Assembly (NCBI GenBank): GCA_964504725.1
Contig: CAZDFI010000004.1
Coordinates: forward strand, 1 to 46,591
Reading direction: 5' to 3'
DNA: 46,591 bases
Origin: an uncultured Enterobacteriaceae bacterium
GTDB lineage: Bacteria; Pseudomonadota; Gammaproteobacteria; Eutrophobiales; Eutrophobiaceae
Shown: positions 6,830 through 46,541 of the stretch, piece by piece
How the letters are laid out: every line of letters begins with the position of its first letter
Numbering within the stretch: the stretch's first letter is position 1
The notes under the pieces: generated by a model
The model's database searches: none
The model's input: only the letters and a program-made list of their open reading frames with translations
What the model was told of the DNA's origin: nothing
Translations under genes and position numbers: made by a program

Positions 6830-8302
6830 TTAATTTAAACCTTTTTCAGCCATGGTAACGGCCCTGAAAATGGCACGGCCTTTATTCATTGTTTCCTTCC
6901 ATTCATTCTCAGGCACGGAATCTGCCACGATGCCTGCGCCCGCCTGAATGTGCAAGGTATCACCTTTAATTACTGCCGTGCGGATGGCAATGGCTGTGTC
7001 CATATTACCATTCCATGAAAGGTAGCCCACGGCACCGGCATAAACGCCACGTTTAACAGGCTCCAATTCGTCAATGATTTCCATTGCCCTTATTTTAGGT
7101 GCTCCTGAGACAGTTCCAGCCGGGAAAGTCGCCCTGAAAACATCAATGGCAGTTTGTCCGCTTTTGAGTGTACCAACCACATTGGAAACGATATGCATCA
7201 CATGGGAATAACGTTCAACGATCATTTTATCTGTGACCTTGACGCTGCCCATCTCAGCGACACGACCCGTGTCGTTACGACCCAGATCGATCAACATTAA
7301 ATGTTCCGCCAGTTCCTTTGGATCAGCCAGTAACTCTTCTTCCAGTGCCAGGTCTTCTTCTGCATCAGCCCCTCGAGGACGGGTGCCTGCGATCGGTCGA
7401 ACCGTGATTTCATTATCTTCCAGGCGTACCAGTATTTCCGGTGAAGAACCGACAATATGAAAATCCTTTAAATTCAGGTAAAACATATAAGGTGATGGAT
7501 TTAAACAACGTAAGGCACGATAGAGGTCTATCGGTGGCGCGTTAAATGGAATCGACAGGCGTTGCGAAAGTACAACCTGCATGGCATCTCCTTCAACAAT
7601 GTAATCTTTTATTCGATCAACACCCTGTTGAAATTTTTCTTGCGTGAACCCGGAGATAAAATCTTTCTCCTCAACGTTTCTTGTATTTCCATTAGGCGTA
7701 TCATTTATGGCTACAGTTAGTTTTTTGGCAAGTTCATCAAGCTGTTGTTGGGCTTTTTCATAGGCATCGCTCTGTTCCGGGTTTGCATGGACAATAAGGT
7801 AAAGTTTGCCGCTCAGATTATCGAACACGATCAGTTGTTCTGAAACCATTAGCAAAATATCCGGACAATTGAGTGGATCGTCCTTATCAGAAATATCCAG
7901 ACGCGTTTCAATATAGCGGACGCAGTCATAAGCAAAGTAACCTACCATGCCACCGGAAAATCTTGGCATTCCAACTATCTCAGGAACACGGAATTCCTGT
8001 TGATATTGTTCCACTGCTTGCAACGGATCCTCGACTGTTTCCTCCCTGATAATTTTTCCATTTTCTTCGATGGTTAGTTGATGACCGGAAACACGGAGAA
8101 TCGTGCTGGAACCCAGACCAATAATGGAATAACGACCCCATTTTTCTCCGCCATGTACCGATTCAAGCAAGTAGGTGTAGGGTTCGTCAGCCAGTTTTTT
8201 GTAGGCACTCAGCGGTGTGTCCATATCTGCGAGTACTTCTCGCATCAGTGGAATTCGGTTGTAATTGCCTTCGGCAAGTTGTTTGTATTGTTCCGGTGTC
8301 AT
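6830..8302 (-). CDS. trpE: anthranilate synthase component I
   Basis: LLESV, GAVGYLS and chorismate-binding C-terminal motifs, 490 aa. Confidence 0.95.
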
Positions 8303-41664: not shown

Positions 41665-42153
41665 TTAATGTGTGGTATCTGATTGTGTGATGGCCTGGTG
41701 AGTAAAATCTTTGATCATGATGGCATCCTGTCGATCAGCCACCTTCTTTACATTATTCGTTCGGATCAGTTCATCAAGGCTAATACTGTTCAAATAATCA
41801 GCGACATGACGGTTCAGGTCCAACCACAGATCATGGGTCAGGCAACGTACATCGCCCATGCAGTTTTGCTGACCACCACAACGGGTCACATCAATATGTT
41901 CATCAACGGCATACATCACGCGTGCGATGGTAATTTCGTCTGCACTGAGTGCCAGGCGGTAACCTCCCCCCGGCCCTCGGATACTCTCGACCAGGCCTTT
42001 TTTACGCAGTTTGCCGAACAACTGTTCTAGGTAGGTCAGAGAAATTTTCTGTCTGGCTGAAATCTCCGCCAGATTCACCGGTGCCTGATCATTGTGTAAT
42101 GCCAGATCCAGCATGGCGGTGACGGCGTAGCGGCCTTTTGTTGTCAGTTTCAT
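41665..42153 (-). CDS. iscR: Rrf2-family regulator, IscR-like
   Basis: [21 protein letters not shown]. Three-Cys cluster region C-x7-C-x5-C ([17 protein letters not shown]). GAGG RBS upstream. Confidence 0.85.
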
Positions 42154-42190
42154 CGTTTTTTACCTCGGGTGTATCCCGAAAAAGGGGGTG

Positions 42191-42248
42191 ATTTTCTCTT
42201 TTCAGACTAATTTAGTCAAGTATATAGTTGATAAGTTTAGTCGGGATT
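42191..42248 (-). promoter_or_regulatory. suf operon promoter with two tandem IscR type-1-like boxes
   Basis: Box 1 at 42199-42223, ttttcaGACTAATTTAGTCaagtat, fits ATASYYGACTRwwwYAGTCRRSTAT. Box 2 at 42224-42248 has the weaker core GATAAGTTTAGTC. Minus-strand -35 TTGACT (42219-42214) lies inside box 1, with a 17-nt spacer to -10 GAAAAT (42196-42191). Confidence 0.6.
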
Positions 42249-42348
42249 TGGGGTTTGTCTATTATTTGTTTATTAGTAATACTATTAATATAAGTGAATG
42301 CTTACATTTATAGTGTATTTTGAGAGTAGTTTTGCCTACTAGCGGCAT

Positions 42349-42480
42349 TCGTCATACCGGCCTTGAGCCGGTATCCAGTCAATATTAAACTTTTATGTCT
42401 TTTTAAATTGATTTCGCCTTTACCCGGCGTGTACCTTTTCTTTGTACGAACGAAAGAAAAGGTACGAAAAGAAAGCCGCC
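42349..42480. repeat. MITE/REP-like element, copy B
   Basis: 42349-42383 are identical to 21416-21450. Shares TTGATTTCGCCTTT and an inner hairpin, here a perfect 13-bp stem (42431-42443/42453-42465). Relative to copy A, a C insertion in one arm is matched by a G insertion in the other. Confidence 0.7.
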
Positions 42481-42576
42481 CCCAATATCGTGTCCTGCGG
42501 ATACCCTCACAGCTGTATGATTTTTTAAGGTCGCGCCTACATGCCTTCCTAGCATGAAGCCCCTCATTTAAACATC

Positions 42577-42627
42577 CCTGTTTAAATGACCTTAAAATCA
42601 TTCAACTGCTCGGCACGATTTAGGGGG
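42577..42627. repeat. left copy of a ~51-bp inverted repeat bracketing the accessory segment
   Basis: The reverse complement of 42577-42627 matches 46491-46541 at 43/51 positions, aligned by hand. Confidence 0.65.
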
Positions 42628-42808
42628 TTAAAAACCACGCCCAAAGTGGCGGATCTATGAAAACAGGTTTATCCTGAAACTCCACAAACAAATACCAATG
42701 GAATAGGTATGAAAGTACAGCACTTATTAATCTTATCTGAAAAAAAGACACGCTTTACCCCTTTAATTTCCAATATACGCGTCCTTCGAAGGACTGCTTA
42801 TTAACTAG

Positions 42809-44257
42809 TTAGGCGACAAAATAAAATTATAAGAATCTCACAAAACGGAGACTAAAAAAGGAACGAATGCGGTGATGAAGAAATTCTTACTTAATCCTTT
42901 CGAAGAAGCAGAACGCCAAGTTCAAGAGCGCGGGGATTGGGTCGTTGCTACAGTAGATCCCCGAATGAGCTGGCCAACACAACAACAGATAGTTGAGTTT
43001 GAAGGAAAAGACTTTGTATTGATTCCCCAGTCCACAGATGCTGATCAAACTGCCGCTGTTGCCCTGAGATCTGATCGCTATGAACTAAGTATGGAGGAAG
43101 TGCGGCGTGAAATTATGCGCTTCTGTAGTGCGCTCTCATGGTCGGAGGGAAGTGGATTATCAGTTCTTGCCTGGAGCGGGGGGAACTTACCTAGGCCAAT
43201 TGGTATTCGAAGAGGGAGAGTTGTAACAAACTTCCTTGATACCGAGCACCTCCCAATAGCCCAAACCCAAGAGGAAAGAGCAGCGATTGCCTTGTATCGA
43301 GAGGGGGTGTCTCTAGACAATCCTTTCTATGCATTTTTAAGCTTGTATAAAGCCATAAGTGTACTTCTACCAAAGGGTAAAGCGCGCGGCGCTTGGATCA
43401 CCGACGCCTTGGATCGCCTTGATGATCATCGAGCAAAAGGACGATGTGATGAAATTAGAAATAGCGGTGCCGATGTGGGCCTATATCTATTTGAGGAATG
43501 TCGGAATGCCATAGCCCATGCTGAGCAAGAACCCTTCATAAATCCAGACGAGGTCGATGATCATTTTAGACTCTCACAGGATATTCCTCTCCTTCGAAAC
43601 CTCGCTGAATTAGCAATTGAAGAAAACTCAACCTTAAAAAGGTCTCATACGCTTTGGCGTGAGCATCTCTACGAATTGGCAGAATTCCGAAATCTGTTTC
43701 CTGATGATGTTATTGATATGCTTGTACAATCAGAGCCAATCCCGGAAGGAACAACTGTTGATTTACCTGATCGATACACGGTCTTAGCTCGTCGCGAAGC
43801 TGAAGTTAATAGCTTCGAAGACATGATCCCCGAAATTACGGGACAGGTTGAAGGAGGCATCGTGTTCGACCTAGTAACCGAAGATGGCGCAATAAGAATA
43901 AGAACTGTACTCTCTTTTGCGGATGAGCGGTTGAAGTTTGATCCTTTGGGAGGCATTGGATTCACGCCGAATCGAGATGATCCCAAATATATTCAGTATG
44001 AGATTGATTCTCTTCTCTTTTCTCGTTGTATTCTTAGCAATGGCCATTTAGAGATATGGGATCAAGATGAGGGGTTGATGCTTGGACGTTCAGAAACCTG
44101 CATCCCCGTTAATTGCTTTGTAAACACTAAATATTACGAGTCCGAGTTATCAACGCTGAGGAAGTTACTGGAACCCGATGATCAGACAAATGGCGATAAT
44201 ATCGCCTAACAAATGTATACAGTCGGACGCAGCAGAGCTGCGCCGCTGATGCGAGCG
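42809..44257 (+). mobile_element. putative integron-type gene cassette (1449 bp), single ORF plus attC-like site
   Basis: Starts TTAGGC after G42808 and ends with G44257 of the attC-like R' box. Joining the ends gives GTTAGGC, the perfect complement of the R'' box GCCTAAC at 44204-44210. No intI in the window. Confidence 0.55.
42872..44209 (+). CDS. hypothetical 445-aa protein with R-x4-H (HEPN/MauJ-like) motif
   Basis: Long clean ORF. AAGGA about 12 nt upstream of ATG 42875 (GTG at 42872). Helical segment AIALYREGVSLDNPFYAFLSLYKAISVLL followed by ECRNAIAHAE (R211-H216, nt 43502-43519). I recognise no other family. Confidence 0.8.
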   Translation: MMKKFLLNPFEEAERQVQERGDWVVATVDPRMSWPTQQQIVEFEGKDFVLIPQSTDADQTAAVALRSDRYELSMEEVRREIMRFCSALSWSEGSGLSVLAWSGGNLPRPIGIRRGRVVTNFLDTEHLPIAQTQEERAAIALYREGVSLDNPFYAFLSLYKAISVLLPKGKARGAWITDALDRLDDHRAKGRCDEIRNSGADVGLYLFEECRNAIAHAEQEPFINPDEVDDHFRLSQDIPLLRNLAELAIEENSTLKRSHTLWREHLYELAEFRNLFPDDVIDMLVQSEPIPEGTTVDLPDRYTVLARREAEVNSFEDMIPEITGQVEGGIVFDLVTEDGAIRIRTVLSFADERLKFDPLGGIGFTPNRDDPKYIQYEIDSLLFSRCILSNGHLEIWDQDEGLMLGRSETCIPVNCFVNTKYYESELSTLRKLLEPDDQTNGDNIA

Positions 44258-44263
44258 TTATGA
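44204..44263 (+). other. attC-like recombination site (60 bp)
   Basis: GCCTAAC-aaatgt-ATaCAGtCGGaCGCAGC-aga-GCTGCGCCGCTGAT-gcgagc-GTTATGA. 14-bp stem with three single-base bulges, all on the 5' arm. 6x6 internal loop. Outer 7-mers pair at 5/7. The ORF stop codon lies inside the first box. Confidence 0.6.
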
Positions 44264-44267
44264 CAAC

Positions 44268-44287
44268 AAAAGGGGACAGATTTATTT
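44268..44287 (+). repeat. 20-bp direct repeat AAAAGGGGACAGATTTATTT, copy 1
   Basis: Identical to 46066-46085. Also pairs with CCCCTTTT at 44330-44337. Confidence 0.7.
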
Positions 44288-44399
44288 ATTCATAACGGTT
44301 TAAATGTGAGTAAACACTTACTTAATATACCCCTTTTGTGTGCCCAAAAGAAAGGTTCCAAGTAGTATTATAATTCCCATCTAAATCTACCTGGAAAGA

Positions 44400-45629
44400 A
44401 TGATGTCTGATTCTGATATTCCTGATAAAACCCAAGTATGTATTATCGGTGCTGGGCCAGCGGGTGTTATTTGTGCCTATCTTTTTGCCTTGCGCGGTGT
44501 CTCAGTGGTTTTGCTTGAGGGGGAAAAGGATTTCGATCGGGAATTTCGGGGTGATACTTTGCATGCTTCTTCATTAGAGATACTTGATCAGCTTGGATTT
44601 GCTGATGAAATATTGGCACAGTGTAATAGCAAGGTTACTAACCTAAAACTCAATGCATCTGAACATGTACTCGAAATCGCCGATTTTTCAGGAATGGATT
44701 GCAAATTTCCTTTTGTCGCCATTATTCCTCAGGAAAAGTTTTTAAATTACATCGTAAAAGAAGCAGGAAAGTTATCAGGCTTTTCGTTACATATGGGTGC
44801 TAGAGTCAAAGAGCTCAAAAAAGGTAATGGAAAAGTAACAGGTATAAAGTTCAGCAAAGATGGAGTTGAGCATGAGCTAGATTGTTTATTAACGATTGGT
44901 GCGGATGGTCGGGGATCAACGGTGCGGCGATTGGCTGATATGAAATTAGGTAAAACCTCACCACCAATGGATGTAATTTGGTTCAAGGTTTCAATACCTG
45001 AAAATTCAGGATTAACAGAATCTGTCAATGGCCGAATTGGTTCAGGCACGATGGTTGCCTTGATTAATCGGGGTGATTATATCCAGGCTGGCTATATCAT
45101 CATGAAAGGTTCCTATAAGGAATTACGCGAGCAGGGCATTGAACATTTTCGAAATGAAATAGCAGCTTTGGTCCCTGAGATTACAAGTACAATTTCTGAA
45201 ATTACAGATTGGTCGCAGTGTGCAATATTATCGGTGGTGACTGGACGTGTTGAAAAATGGTATCAGGATGGTTTGTTATTGATTGGTGATGCTGCGCATG
45301 TAATGTCTCCTGTAGGTGGCGTCGGGATAAATTATGCGATTCAGGATGCAGTGGCAACCGCTAATCTTTTGACTGATCCAATAAAAGAAAATTGTTTGAA
45401 TATTACCGATTTGGCCAAGGTGCAAACTCGACGCGAACCTGCTACTAAATTCATTCAGAAATTTCAGATGTTTGTACAACAGCGAATAATCAGTAGTGCA
45501 CTTAAATCGGATAAACCGTTCAGTCCGCCTCTACCTTTAAAAGTGATTTCCAGTTTATCTTTTATGAAAAAACGGGTTGCAAAGTTACTGGCTTATGGGA
45601 GATGTCCTGAACGAGTAGAAGGAGTTTAA
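44400..45629 (+). CDS. FAD-dependent monooxygenase (UbiH/aromatic-ring hydroxylase-like)
   Basis: VCIIGAGPAGV dinucleotide-binding motif, DGRGSTVRR, LIGDAAHVMSPVGGVGINYAIQDA. Confidence 0.85.
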   Translation: MMSDSDIPDKTQVCIIGAGPAGVICAYLFALRGVSVVLLEGEKDFDREFRGDTLHASSLEILDQLGFADEILAQCNSKVTNLKLNASEHVLEIADFSGMDCKFPFVAIIPQEKFLNYIVKEAGKLSGFSLHMGARVKELKKGNGKVTGIKFSKDGVEHELDCLLTIGADGRGSTVRRLADMKLGKTSPPMDVIWFKVSIPENSGLTESVNGRIGSGTMVALINRGDYIQAGYIIMKGSYKELREQGIEHFRNEIAALVPEITSTISEITDWSQCAILSVVTGRVEKWYQDGLLLIGDAAHVMSPVGGVGINYAIQDAVATANLLTDPIKENCLNITDLAKVQTRREPATKFIQKFQMFVQQRIISSALKSDKPFSPPLPLKVISSLSFMKKRVAKLLAYGRCPERVEGV

Positions 45630-45746
45630 AATTCGGATTAATTTTTTATACCTCACTATGACATATAAAGGCATGGTCTCGAATGCATGCAGAGAACTAG
45701 GCTACACTGTTGAGATGAAGCAATAGTTGACTATAGAGGTATTGCC

Positions 45747-46067
45747 ATGAATAACAACGAGCTCCGCTCTCCCAGTATTAATCACATTTCCTGGGGTCAT
45801 ATGGAGGTCGATAATGTCGGTGTTGGTAAGGATTTCAAGCTTTGGCCTGGTGGTGGTCGGGTGTGGGACTGGAGGGAAACCGATACACATCACATACCCG
45901 GGATTCAACCCACTGACGTTGAAGAATTACTCGACAACGGGTGTCAAACGATTGTTTTAAGCCGGGGAATGTTGCTGATGCTGCACACGCGTCGGGAGAC
46001 GCTAGATCTGCTTGATGAGAGAAATATTCCAGTGCATATCGCCGAGACGAAGGCAGCGGCCACATAA
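45747..46067 (+). CDS. Mth938-like (DUF498) domain protein
   Basis: ISWGHMEV...DFKLWPGG...W.W..T.T.H.PGIQ...IVLSRGM pattern is typical of the Mth938/NDUFAF3-like family, recalled from memory. Confidence 0.7.
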   Translation: MNNNELRSPSINHISWGHMEVDNVGVGKDFKLWPGGGRVWDWRETDTHHIPGIQPTDVEELLDNGCQTIVLSRGMLLMLHTRRETLDLLDERNIPVHIAETKAAAT

Positions 46068-46085
46068 AAGGGGACAGATTTATTT
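46066..46085 (+). repeat. 20-bp direct repeat AAAAGGGGACAGATTTATTT, copy 2
   Basis: Identical to 44268-44287. Overlaps the stop codon of the Mth938-like ORF. Confidence 0.7.
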
Positions 46086-46490: not shown

Positions 46491-46541
46491 TCCCTTATAT
46501 CGTGCCGAGGAGCTTAATGATTTTAAGGTTATTTGAACAGG
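46491..46541. repeat. right copy of the ~51-bp inverted repeat
   Basis: Matches the reverse complement of 42577-42627 at 43/51. Followed by hairpin AAGGATTG-ttcccga-CAATCCTT (46543-46565). Confidence 0.65.

Follow-up and report, generated by a model that had tools for sequence, protein, structure and literature searches.

The stretch of DNA analyzed here, hereafter the window, is the 46,591 nt of contig CAZDFI010000004.1 (assembly GCA_964504725.1), which belongs to a gammaproteobacterial metagenome-assembled genome (MAG). Between the iscR-sufA-sufB operon to its left and a flavin adenine dinucleotide (FAD)-monooxygenase gene to its right, it carries a single integron gene cassette composed of one MauJ-family open reading frame (ORF) and one attC site. 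This is an isolated cassette of the kind termed SALIN that was most likely inserted by an integron integrase at a genomic GTT. SALINs are defined as a single attC site plus a coding sequence without another att site or an integrase nearby, and 3,400 of them are recorded in RefSeq (bioRxiv 10.1101/2022.09.11.507474). In the window, a single attC site with an associated coding sequence is found with no other att site and no integrase nearby, and the finding is thus a member of this already described class.

The attC site and its family

The hairpin that follows the MauJ-family ORF is, judged from covariance models and family comparisons, a genuine integron attC site that is predicted to be recombined by IntI as a folded bottom strand. 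The site and its parts, in window coordinates, are as follows; R1 and R2 denote two covariance models described below.

44204–44263, plus strand: attC site, 60 nt, defined by R1 and R2 model matches, DNA folds, family alignment, and covariation
44204–44210, plus strand: R'' box, GCCTAAC
44211–44213, plus strand: R''-side spacer
44214–44233, plus strand: L'' stem arm TGTAT[A]CAG[T]CGG[A]CGCAGC, with extrahelical A44219, T44223, and A44227
44234–44236, plus strand: apical loop AGA
44237–44253, plus strand: L' stem arm GCTGCG CCG CTG ATGCG
44254–44256, plus strand: R'-side spacer
44257–44263, plus strand: R' box, GTTATGA, with the crossover between G44257 and T44258

In a BLASTN search of plasmids with a 77-mer, this hairpin core was recovered from two Pseudoalteromonas replicons, one of which shows a compensatory change from CAG/CTG to CAC/GTG. 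We also scanned a metagenome collection for the hairpin core CGGACGCAGC-NNN-GCTGCGCCG and found it on at least 120 contigs, about 105 of which carry the full layout of an attC site (xxYTAAC, spacer, bulged L'', loop, L', spacer, and a GTTRRRY-like end). Among the matches listed, the sites fall into length classes of 59–61, 75, and 84–87 nt, the window site being one of the 60/61-nt class (CGCAT[G]CAG[T]CGG[A]CGCAGC...GCTGCG CCG CTG ATGCG). Also among the matches listed, six contigs of the family encode integron integrases (TIGR02249, 266–451 bits against a cut-off of 265), and all six show the divergent arrangement of integrase and attC-bearing strand that is typical of canonical integrons. 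Members of the family form cassette arrays: L192 has at least 14 sites, which lie from a few hundred to about 1,800 bp apart, L103 has 10, and L120 and L086 have 7 each.

Two covariance models were built with the window excluded, R1 from 38 metagenomic sites of 59–61 nt and R2, a rebuilt version, from 150 harvested metagenomic sites; all training sites were taken from cassette arrays in metagenomes, six of them beside integron integrases. On the plus strand of 44204–44263, R1 scored 67.2 bits (E = 4e-17) and R2 scored 69.6 bits (E = 3.4e-16). With filters off, neither model found another site in the 46.6-kb window at E < 8 except the reverse strand of the same 60 nt. The attC model match that a preceding reading of the window, made from the bases alone (hereafter the sequence-only reading), had proposed as a check was therefore obtained with our own models, at E of about 1e-16 and with nothing else in the window. 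When R2 was run over 1.14 Mb of unrelated control loci, only three matches appeared at E ≤ 1, namely the window duplicate L001 and two sites in L002. The 60-mer of attC_aadA1, confirmed to be exact in plasmid R100 directly after aadA1 and beside intI1, scored 59.9 bits with R2 (E = 6e-14), so that the window site outscores this classical, experimentally studied site under the model, and attC_dfrA1 in the dfrA1-aadA1 array of pSE08-00436-1 scored 33.2 bits. Nothing else in those 18 kb of class 1 integron DNA was better than E = 0.3 except the reverse strand of the aadA1 sites. Because R2 recovers the attC sites of both aadA1 and dfrA1, it behaves as a general attC model. Among 142 distinct harvested sites, compensatory changes were present in 21 of the 23 modeled pairs, and 89% of cells were paired compared with 22–41% when the partners were slid by one to three columns, in an alignment that had itself been fitted to the model. 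The Rfam gathering scan and the tRNA and transfer-messenger RNA scan of the window gave no match at the attC site.

The bases and coordinates quoted in the sequence-only reading all proved correct when the sequence was read again. The stop codon of the ORF, TAA (44207–44209), lies inside R'', which fits RYYYAAC exactly. With its 60 nt, the site is within the size range of attC sites, about 55–140 nt. The three single-base bulges that had been noticed on one arm are present, all of them on the L'' arm only and at positions where the family conserves extrahelical bases (G/T/A in the family consensus and A/T/A in the window). Folding of the bottom strand had been suggested as a further check, and the bulged hairpin was reproduced as DNA on both strands (-12.4 and -12.3 kcal/mol) with an energy that is only moderately unusual (z-scores of -2.1 and -2.4 against shuffles); folding energy alone is therefore insufficient, and significance rests on the covariance models. 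Two details of the earlier description had to be revised. First, in place of a symmetric, unpaired spacer of six bases on each side, the family consensus shows a 3-nt spacer and three further stem pairs (CGCAT/ATGCG), which in the window copy are weakened by C-to-T changes at T44214 and T44216 relative to both the family consensus and the homologous cassette in contig L194. On the top strand these changes turn C-G pairs into T·G pairs, corresponding to A·C mismatches on the recombinogenic bottom strand, and they are consistent with decay after the cassette was stranded. Second, R' GTTATGA deviates from GTTRRRY at two positions, which had been read as the sign of a secondary site; this misfit is not diagnostic, as 28 of 93 array sites of the family fit GTTRRRY strictly, 43 start with GTTAT, and 4 are GTTATGA. 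The complementarity of R'' and R' at five of seven positions is the modal class among the same array sites (32 of 93).

An isolated attC site of this family was also seen in Pseudoalteromonas sp. THAF3 plasmid pTHAF3_a (L066, 4077–8956), where it occupies 7985–8044 (R1, 61 bits), which reveals that stray attC sites of the family occur in cultured, closed genomes as well. It lies downstream of an AAA ATPase and DUF4435 gene pair, upstream of an HNH endonuclease gene, and beside an unannotated reverse-strand stretch that may be the remnant of an IS110-like transposase gene. We take the AAA ATPase and DUF4435 pair to be a PARIS-like defense pair. The tyrosine recombinase of a Pseudoalteromonas plasmid locus (L067) was considered as an IntI and rejected, as it is Xer-like (70 bits against TIGR02249, for which the cut-off is 265).

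The cassette and its occurrence in other genomes

Homology across different contexts fixes the boundaries of the element at 42809–44257, and on these sequence comparisons it is an integron gene cassette, which comprises the following parts.

42809–44257, plus strand: gene cassette, 1,449 bp, with a 5' untranslated leader followed by one ORF and by attC as far as the crossover G, delimited by homology breakpoints and the attC model
42808–42814, plus strand: left junction core GTTAGGC, in which G42808 is target-derived and TTAGGC... is the cassette start, with the crossover at 42808/42809
42809–42871, plus strand: cassette leader, 63 nt, without a recognizable promoter, conserved in L002 (87% nt identity) and partly in L194
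42872–44209, plus strand: cassette ORF, 445 aa from GTG or 444 aa from ATG at 42875, MauJ-family

The same cassette occurs in arrays elsewhere, in unrelated bacteria. In a Geopsychrobacter MAG contig (L002), nucleotide identity is 87% over 1,395 nt and the homology begins exactly at window position 42808 (GTTAGGCGA...); upstream of this point L002 has the attC site of another cassette (R2 match at L002 1792–1890), and the window has unrelated DNA. The homolog in L194 (83% aa identity) has the same cassette start, TTAGGCGACAAA, preceded by an attC site, and downstream of its gene are the same attC arms, TCGCCTAAC-AAGCGCATGCAGTCGGA...CCGCTGATGCGAGGC-GTTAGAA, with a longer loop. L198 likewise has GTTAGGC at the same place with an attC site before it, and in L198–L200 the homolog is part of an array of five attC sites beside an Mrr-like cassette. 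The search for the same ORF and attC in other contexts, which the sequence-only reading had named as a check, was thus successful in L194, and in L002 for the start at 42808 after an attC site; the loss of the hairpin from the gene in other genomes, which had been named as grounds for rejecting a cassette, is countered by L194. The hairpin was not found downstream of the species-representative homologs L002–L011, which at first seemed to speak against a cassette, and this apparent conflict was resolved by the covariance model and by the closer metagenomic homologs L194 and L198. The starts and attC sites shared with L002, L194, and L198 in their different contexts indicate that 42809–44257 is a bona fide mobile cassette.

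The two ends of the cassette are complementary, as expected from the earlier observation that GTTAGGC at 42808–42814 is the exact complement of R''; in a repeat search this pairing extends to 9 nt without a mismatch, between GTTAGGCGA (42808–42816) and TCGCCTAAC (44202–44210). The promoter scan placed no site within the leader and found 8 sites overall, compared with 4.7 ± 2.3 expected. The composition profile gives the cassette a G+C content only slightly above that of its flanks, a difference without diagnostic value.

Several side observations concern this cassette lineage. A small hairpin, GGCGAT-AAT-ATCGCC, is located at 44192–44206 in the last codons of the ORF and overlaps R''; its L194 counterpart is GGCGAC-AGT-GTCGCC, a compensatory change. 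The 5' end of the L194 cassette, GTTAGGCGACA, is complementary to the equivalent region over 11 nt, and R-box pairing of the circular cassette is therefore seemingly extended in this lineage. In L002 (3283–3712), the part homologous to the window ends immediately before the stop codon, and no attC is present; the ORF that follows resembles, by appearance, an insertion-sequence accessory protein, and the 3' end of that cassette may have been replaced or interrupted. In L195–L197, two direct repeats of ACATAAGTCAATAT lie about 60 nt upstream of the start of the MauJ cassette, the junction is degenerate (CTGTAGGCGAC instead of GTTAGGCGAC), and an attC site is missing upstream. The region may be attI-like, which would put the MauJ cassette first in line; the contig stops short of where an integrase could be seen.

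The proposed insertion site and alternative histories

No integron was found around the cassette. A phmmer search of the window with IntI1 gave nothing at E ≤ 1e-3, and a profile of six IntI sequences run against all six-frame segments of at least 30 aa gave a best E of 0.69, confirming the earlier remark that no integrase is in view. With no IntI similarity in the window, the locus does not have the composition of a complete integron (intI, attI, and Pc). Neither is it a CALIN, a group of two or more close attC sites without intI, because one attC site is present in 46.6 kb at E < 8. R1 and R2 found no second attC site in either the 42.8 kb that precede the cassette or the 2.3 kb that follow it, in agreement with the earlier statement that no similar fold follows the next ORFs; as the contig ends 2.3 kb downstream, the finding of a single attC site and no cluster holds within the contig.

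The two sides of the cassette are as follows.

42635–42807, no strand assigned: left flank, 173 nt, of an origin without match, ending in ...TTATTAACTA followed by G42808, with the palindrome GTCCTTCGAAGGAC at 42781–42794
44258–44399, plus strand: right flank, native chromosome upstream of the FAD-monooxygenase gene, in which TTATGA is the target-derived half of R'

The right flank can be compared with a relative that lacks the cassette (L203), in which the gap between iscR and the FAD-monooxygenase gene is only 357 nt and the FAD-monooxygenase is 90% identical at the amino acid level and 89% at the nucleotide level. Window positions 42000–42327 and 44293–45674 are homologous to adjacent parts of the L203 contig. 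Identity is 91% from 44293 on, and a gapped alignment reaches back to TATGA at 44259, about 2 nt from the crossover. Because this homology extends so far back in a cassette-free relative, the right junction is one between the cassette and native chromosome. Relatives of the host lack the ORF at this locus, as L203 shows with iscR directly beside the FAD-monooxygenase gene, in line with what the sequence-only reading had led us to look for.

Integrases have been shown experimentally to insert cassettes at genomic attG sites with the consensus GWT (bioRxiv 10.1101/2022.09.11.507474). When the cassette was removed from the window in silico, the sequence ...AACTAG↓TTATGAC... remained (arrow, crossover point); the reconstructed target AACTAG↓TTATGA contains GTT and fits the GWT consensus of that study. 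The predicted empty site is ...AACTAGTTATGAC..., that is, ...CTTATTAACTAG↓TTATGACAACAAAAGGGG..., and the predicted junction of the circular cassette is ...CTGATGCGAGCG↓TTAGGCGACAAAA.... The most likely event is insertion at this non-attI genomic GTT, an attG or secondary site, by an integrase acting in trans. An integron integrase would have released the cassette, in circular form, from an array carried by another replicon or organism, the bottom strand of attC would have folded into the bulged hairpin recognized by the integrase, and the integrase would then have recombined the circle in trans with the double-stranded genomic G↓TT site (...AACTAG↓TTATGAC...), which would leave two hybrid junctions, G↓TTAGGC to the left of the cassette and GCGAGCG↓TTATGA to its right. 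Since no integrase, attI, or Pc promoter is nearby, the cassette is stranded, and its expression is predicted to depend on read-through transcription. The sequence-only reading had left two alternatives, a single cassette at a secondary GTT site and the edge of an integrase-less attC cluster. The former is favored, because no second attC site is present upstream or downstream in the contig and the right flank is native; the latter is disfavored on the same grounds.

Several points weigh against this account. The left flank (42635–42807) has no BLASTN match in 1.79 Mb of fetched loci and no significant similarity to L203, and the left and right flanks may therefore not once have been contiguous; the same segment contains no attC model match, no IntI-profile match, and no attI-like remnant. 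The exact empty site, a search for which had been recommended, was not found in the SufB-cluster relatives L068–L073, in the FAD-monooxygenase relatives L202–L206, or by BLASTN of the flanks over the 1.79 Mb, L203 being the closest, so that the mechanism of insertion is one that we infer. Other rearrangements are found nearby, namely inverted copies of the TwoAYGGAY RNA, a 20-nt direct repeat, and a truncated DUF498 gene, and the genome may hold an integron outside this contig, or more attC sites past the point 2.3 kb downstream at which the contig ends.

The neighborhood itself is variable. Among the relatives L068–L073 and L202–L206, the space between iscR and the next gene (42154–44400 in the window) is a hotspot that holds a Fic toxin–antitoxin pair, a CMAS methyltransferase gene, MarR or oxoprolinase genes, or nothing (L203), depending on the genome. 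TwoAYGGAY RNA (RF01731) has a full-length match at 42471–42634 on the minus strand (47.3 bits against a gathering threshold of 43) that was missed by the whole-window gathering scan, and a second, inverted, partial copy is located at the contig end (46462–46591, plus strand). The copies contain an inverted repeat of 50 nt with 86% identity (42577–42626 and 46492–46541) and bracket the cassette, the FAD-monooxygenase gene, the DUF498 gene, and an ORF of 120 aa; copies also lie upstream of iscR in the relatives L072, L068, and L069. An exact 20-nt direct repeat, AAAAGGGGACAGATTTATTT, is present at 44268–44287 and 46066–46085. Its first copy starts 4 nt after R' of attC, and its second copy starts 4 nt after 46061/46062, the point beyond which the DUF498 gene no longer matches L203 and L204 (its product is 106 aa in the window and 126 aa in these relatives). 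This repeat is an unexplained rearrangement or duplication junction.

Given the missing empty site, the unmatched left flank, and the variable hotspot, part of the probability goes to two other origins. In the first, which is rather unlikely, the cassette would be all that is left of a chromosomal integron or CALIN that decayed through deletion of intI, attI, and the other cassettes. A rearrangement-prone hotspot with different genes in relatives and a left flank without a matching origin would suit such a remnant, as would the two positions of the L'' arm at which the family consensus and L194 have C and the window has T, a difference consistent with age. However, no intI fragment was detected even at E = 10 apart from the six-frame profile value of 0.69, no degraded attC site lies upstream or downstream, the left junction is a clean G↓TT, and at the right junction the native sequence of the cassette-free relative begins within about 2 nt of the crossover point. 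In addition, most CALINs are not near intI pseudogenes, which has been argued to reflect insertion (bioRxiv 10.1101/2022.09.11.507474).

In the second, which we consider improbable and place behind decay of an array, the cassette was already stray in another genome and was carried in as part of a longer mobile or recombined segment, such as the 3.9 kb between the inverted copies of TwoAYGGAY or a fragment acquired through transformation and homologous recombination. The bracketing 50-nt inverted repeats would fit such a segment, as would the 20-nt direct repeat with the truncated DUF498 gene, and the extra DNA relative to L203 runs from 42328 to about 44258 and thus includes a TwoAYGGAY element and the 173-nt orphan segment in addition to the cassette. 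However, the bracketed FAD-monooxygenase and DUF498 genes are native and syntenic with iscR and valS in L203 and L206 (85–92% nt identity), TwoAYGGAY copies are also found upstream of iscR in relatives, and the segment encodes no transposase or recombinase.

A chimeric metagenome assembly that joined a foreign cassette to the chromosome is very improbable: the window is a MAG contig and cassette arrays are repeat-rich and prone to mis-joins, yet an independent Logan assembly of SRR8799001 (L001, 2,634 bp), which may share the same reads, is 100% identical over 42521–45154 and spans both junctions. Finally, that the hairpin is an ordinary transcription terminator or a host palindrome resembling a repetitive extragenic palindrome or a miniature inverted-repeat transposable element, with a coincidental likeness to attC, can practically be dismissed, as its position directly after a stop codon and a folding z-score of only about -2 are outweighed by the lack of a T-run after the stem (ATGCGAGCGTTATGACAAC follows instead), the absence of a call in the terminator scan, its single copy in 46.6 kb, the attC model match at E of about 1e-16 with three bulges at family-conserved positions, and the physical linkage of the hairpin family to integron integrases.

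Related systems and the cargo gene

The closest counterparts of the inserted cassette are the SALINs, with which it shares one ORF and one attC site, the absence of intI, attI, and a second attC site nearby, G↓TT junctions, and a target GTT that fits GWT. Unlike the described SALINs, it comes from an uncultured gammaproteobacterial MAG and is known from sequence alone, the same cassette is also present in arrays of other phyla, and its attC arm has two C-to-T changes. The attC site of aadA1, the "59-base element" of class 1 integrons (In2 of Tn21 on R100), has the same length of 60 nt and the same layout. A column-for-column comparison of the window and aadA1 sites in R2 sets ...CCGACGCCGC/GCGGCGCGG... 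against ...CGGACGCAGC/GCTGCGCCG...; both sites also have an extrahelical A just ahead of the apical stem. In contrast to aadA1, for which the R2 alignment gives a gap at the position of the middle bulge, the window site has three extrahelical bases in L'' (A, T, and A); the cargo of the two cassettes also differs, and the window has no intI1, attI1, or Pc.

The sedentary chromosomal integrons of marine and sediment Gammaproteobacteria, with their VCR-like attC families, are comparable in that the window site is part of a large family with a common core, CGGACGCAGC-NNN-GCTGCGCCG, whose members form arrays, some with 14 sites or more, and also lie beside TIGR02249 integrases, whereas the window site is a single copy outside any array. 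Insertion of cassettes at secondary sites of plasmids, with the consensus GWTMW and with aadB in RSF1010 as an example, was reportedly described by Francia et al. in 1993 and by Recchia and Hall in 1995. The reconstructed GTTAT fits that consensus, and here, too, the cassette is stranded with one junction that is no longer a proper recombination site; unlike those cases, it lies in the chromosome of an environmental bacterium and carries no antibiotic-resistance gene.

The window thus provides a clear case, from nature, of a gene cassette with no integron around it, and the fact that the cassette was also caught in arrays of unrelated bacteria (87% nt identity to the Geopsychrobacter MAG contig) supports the recently proposed spread of cassettes to ordinary positions in chromosomes. 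A large attC family from marine and sediment sources is added as well, and the MauJ-family gene joins the list of cassette cargo to which no function is assigned. No new mechanism is revealed, and isolated cassettes are already catalogued by the thousands in RefSeq.

The cargo protein has a MauJ domain (PF17419) at residues 138–250 (Pfam, 5.9e-29). Homologs with 88–30% identity are encoded in Geopsychrobacter, Gammaproteobacteria, Methylophilaceae, Pirellulales, Nitrosomonas, Pseudomonas, and Sphingomonadales, and among 42 homologs the motif R210-N-A-I-A-H215 (R-x4-H) is invariant. R-x4-6-H is the signature of HEPN RNases. The AlphaFold2 model of the protein (pLDDT, the predicted local distance difference test score, 89.6; pTM, the predicted template-modeling score, 0.85) is all-helical in the MauJ domain. 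Foldseek searches of PDB and BFVD with the full-length model and with the helical MauJ domain gave no significant fold match, a profile search of PDB sequences was empty, and neither PADLOC, PHROGs, nor the Pfam HEPN models matched the protein; a literature search for "MauJ" returned nothing relevant. The best HEPN structure match, 2hsb, is not significant (E = 1.8, TM score 0.30–0.36), and the likeness to HEPN is therefore a lead only. It is possible, if on balance unlikely, that the cargo is an uncharacterized single-gene toxin or anti-phage effector, an HEPN-like RNase, seeded into the chromosome by recombination between attC and attG; if so, the stray copy would be a natural example of the seeding of such a gene.

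The gene family is also found without attC. In L201 (3441–6050) and L003, a MauJ homolog with 77% aa identity lies right after a P4-like tyrosine integrase gene and a Prim-Pol/PriCT_2 gene, a context that indicates that the MauJ gene family travels on a second kind of mobile element.

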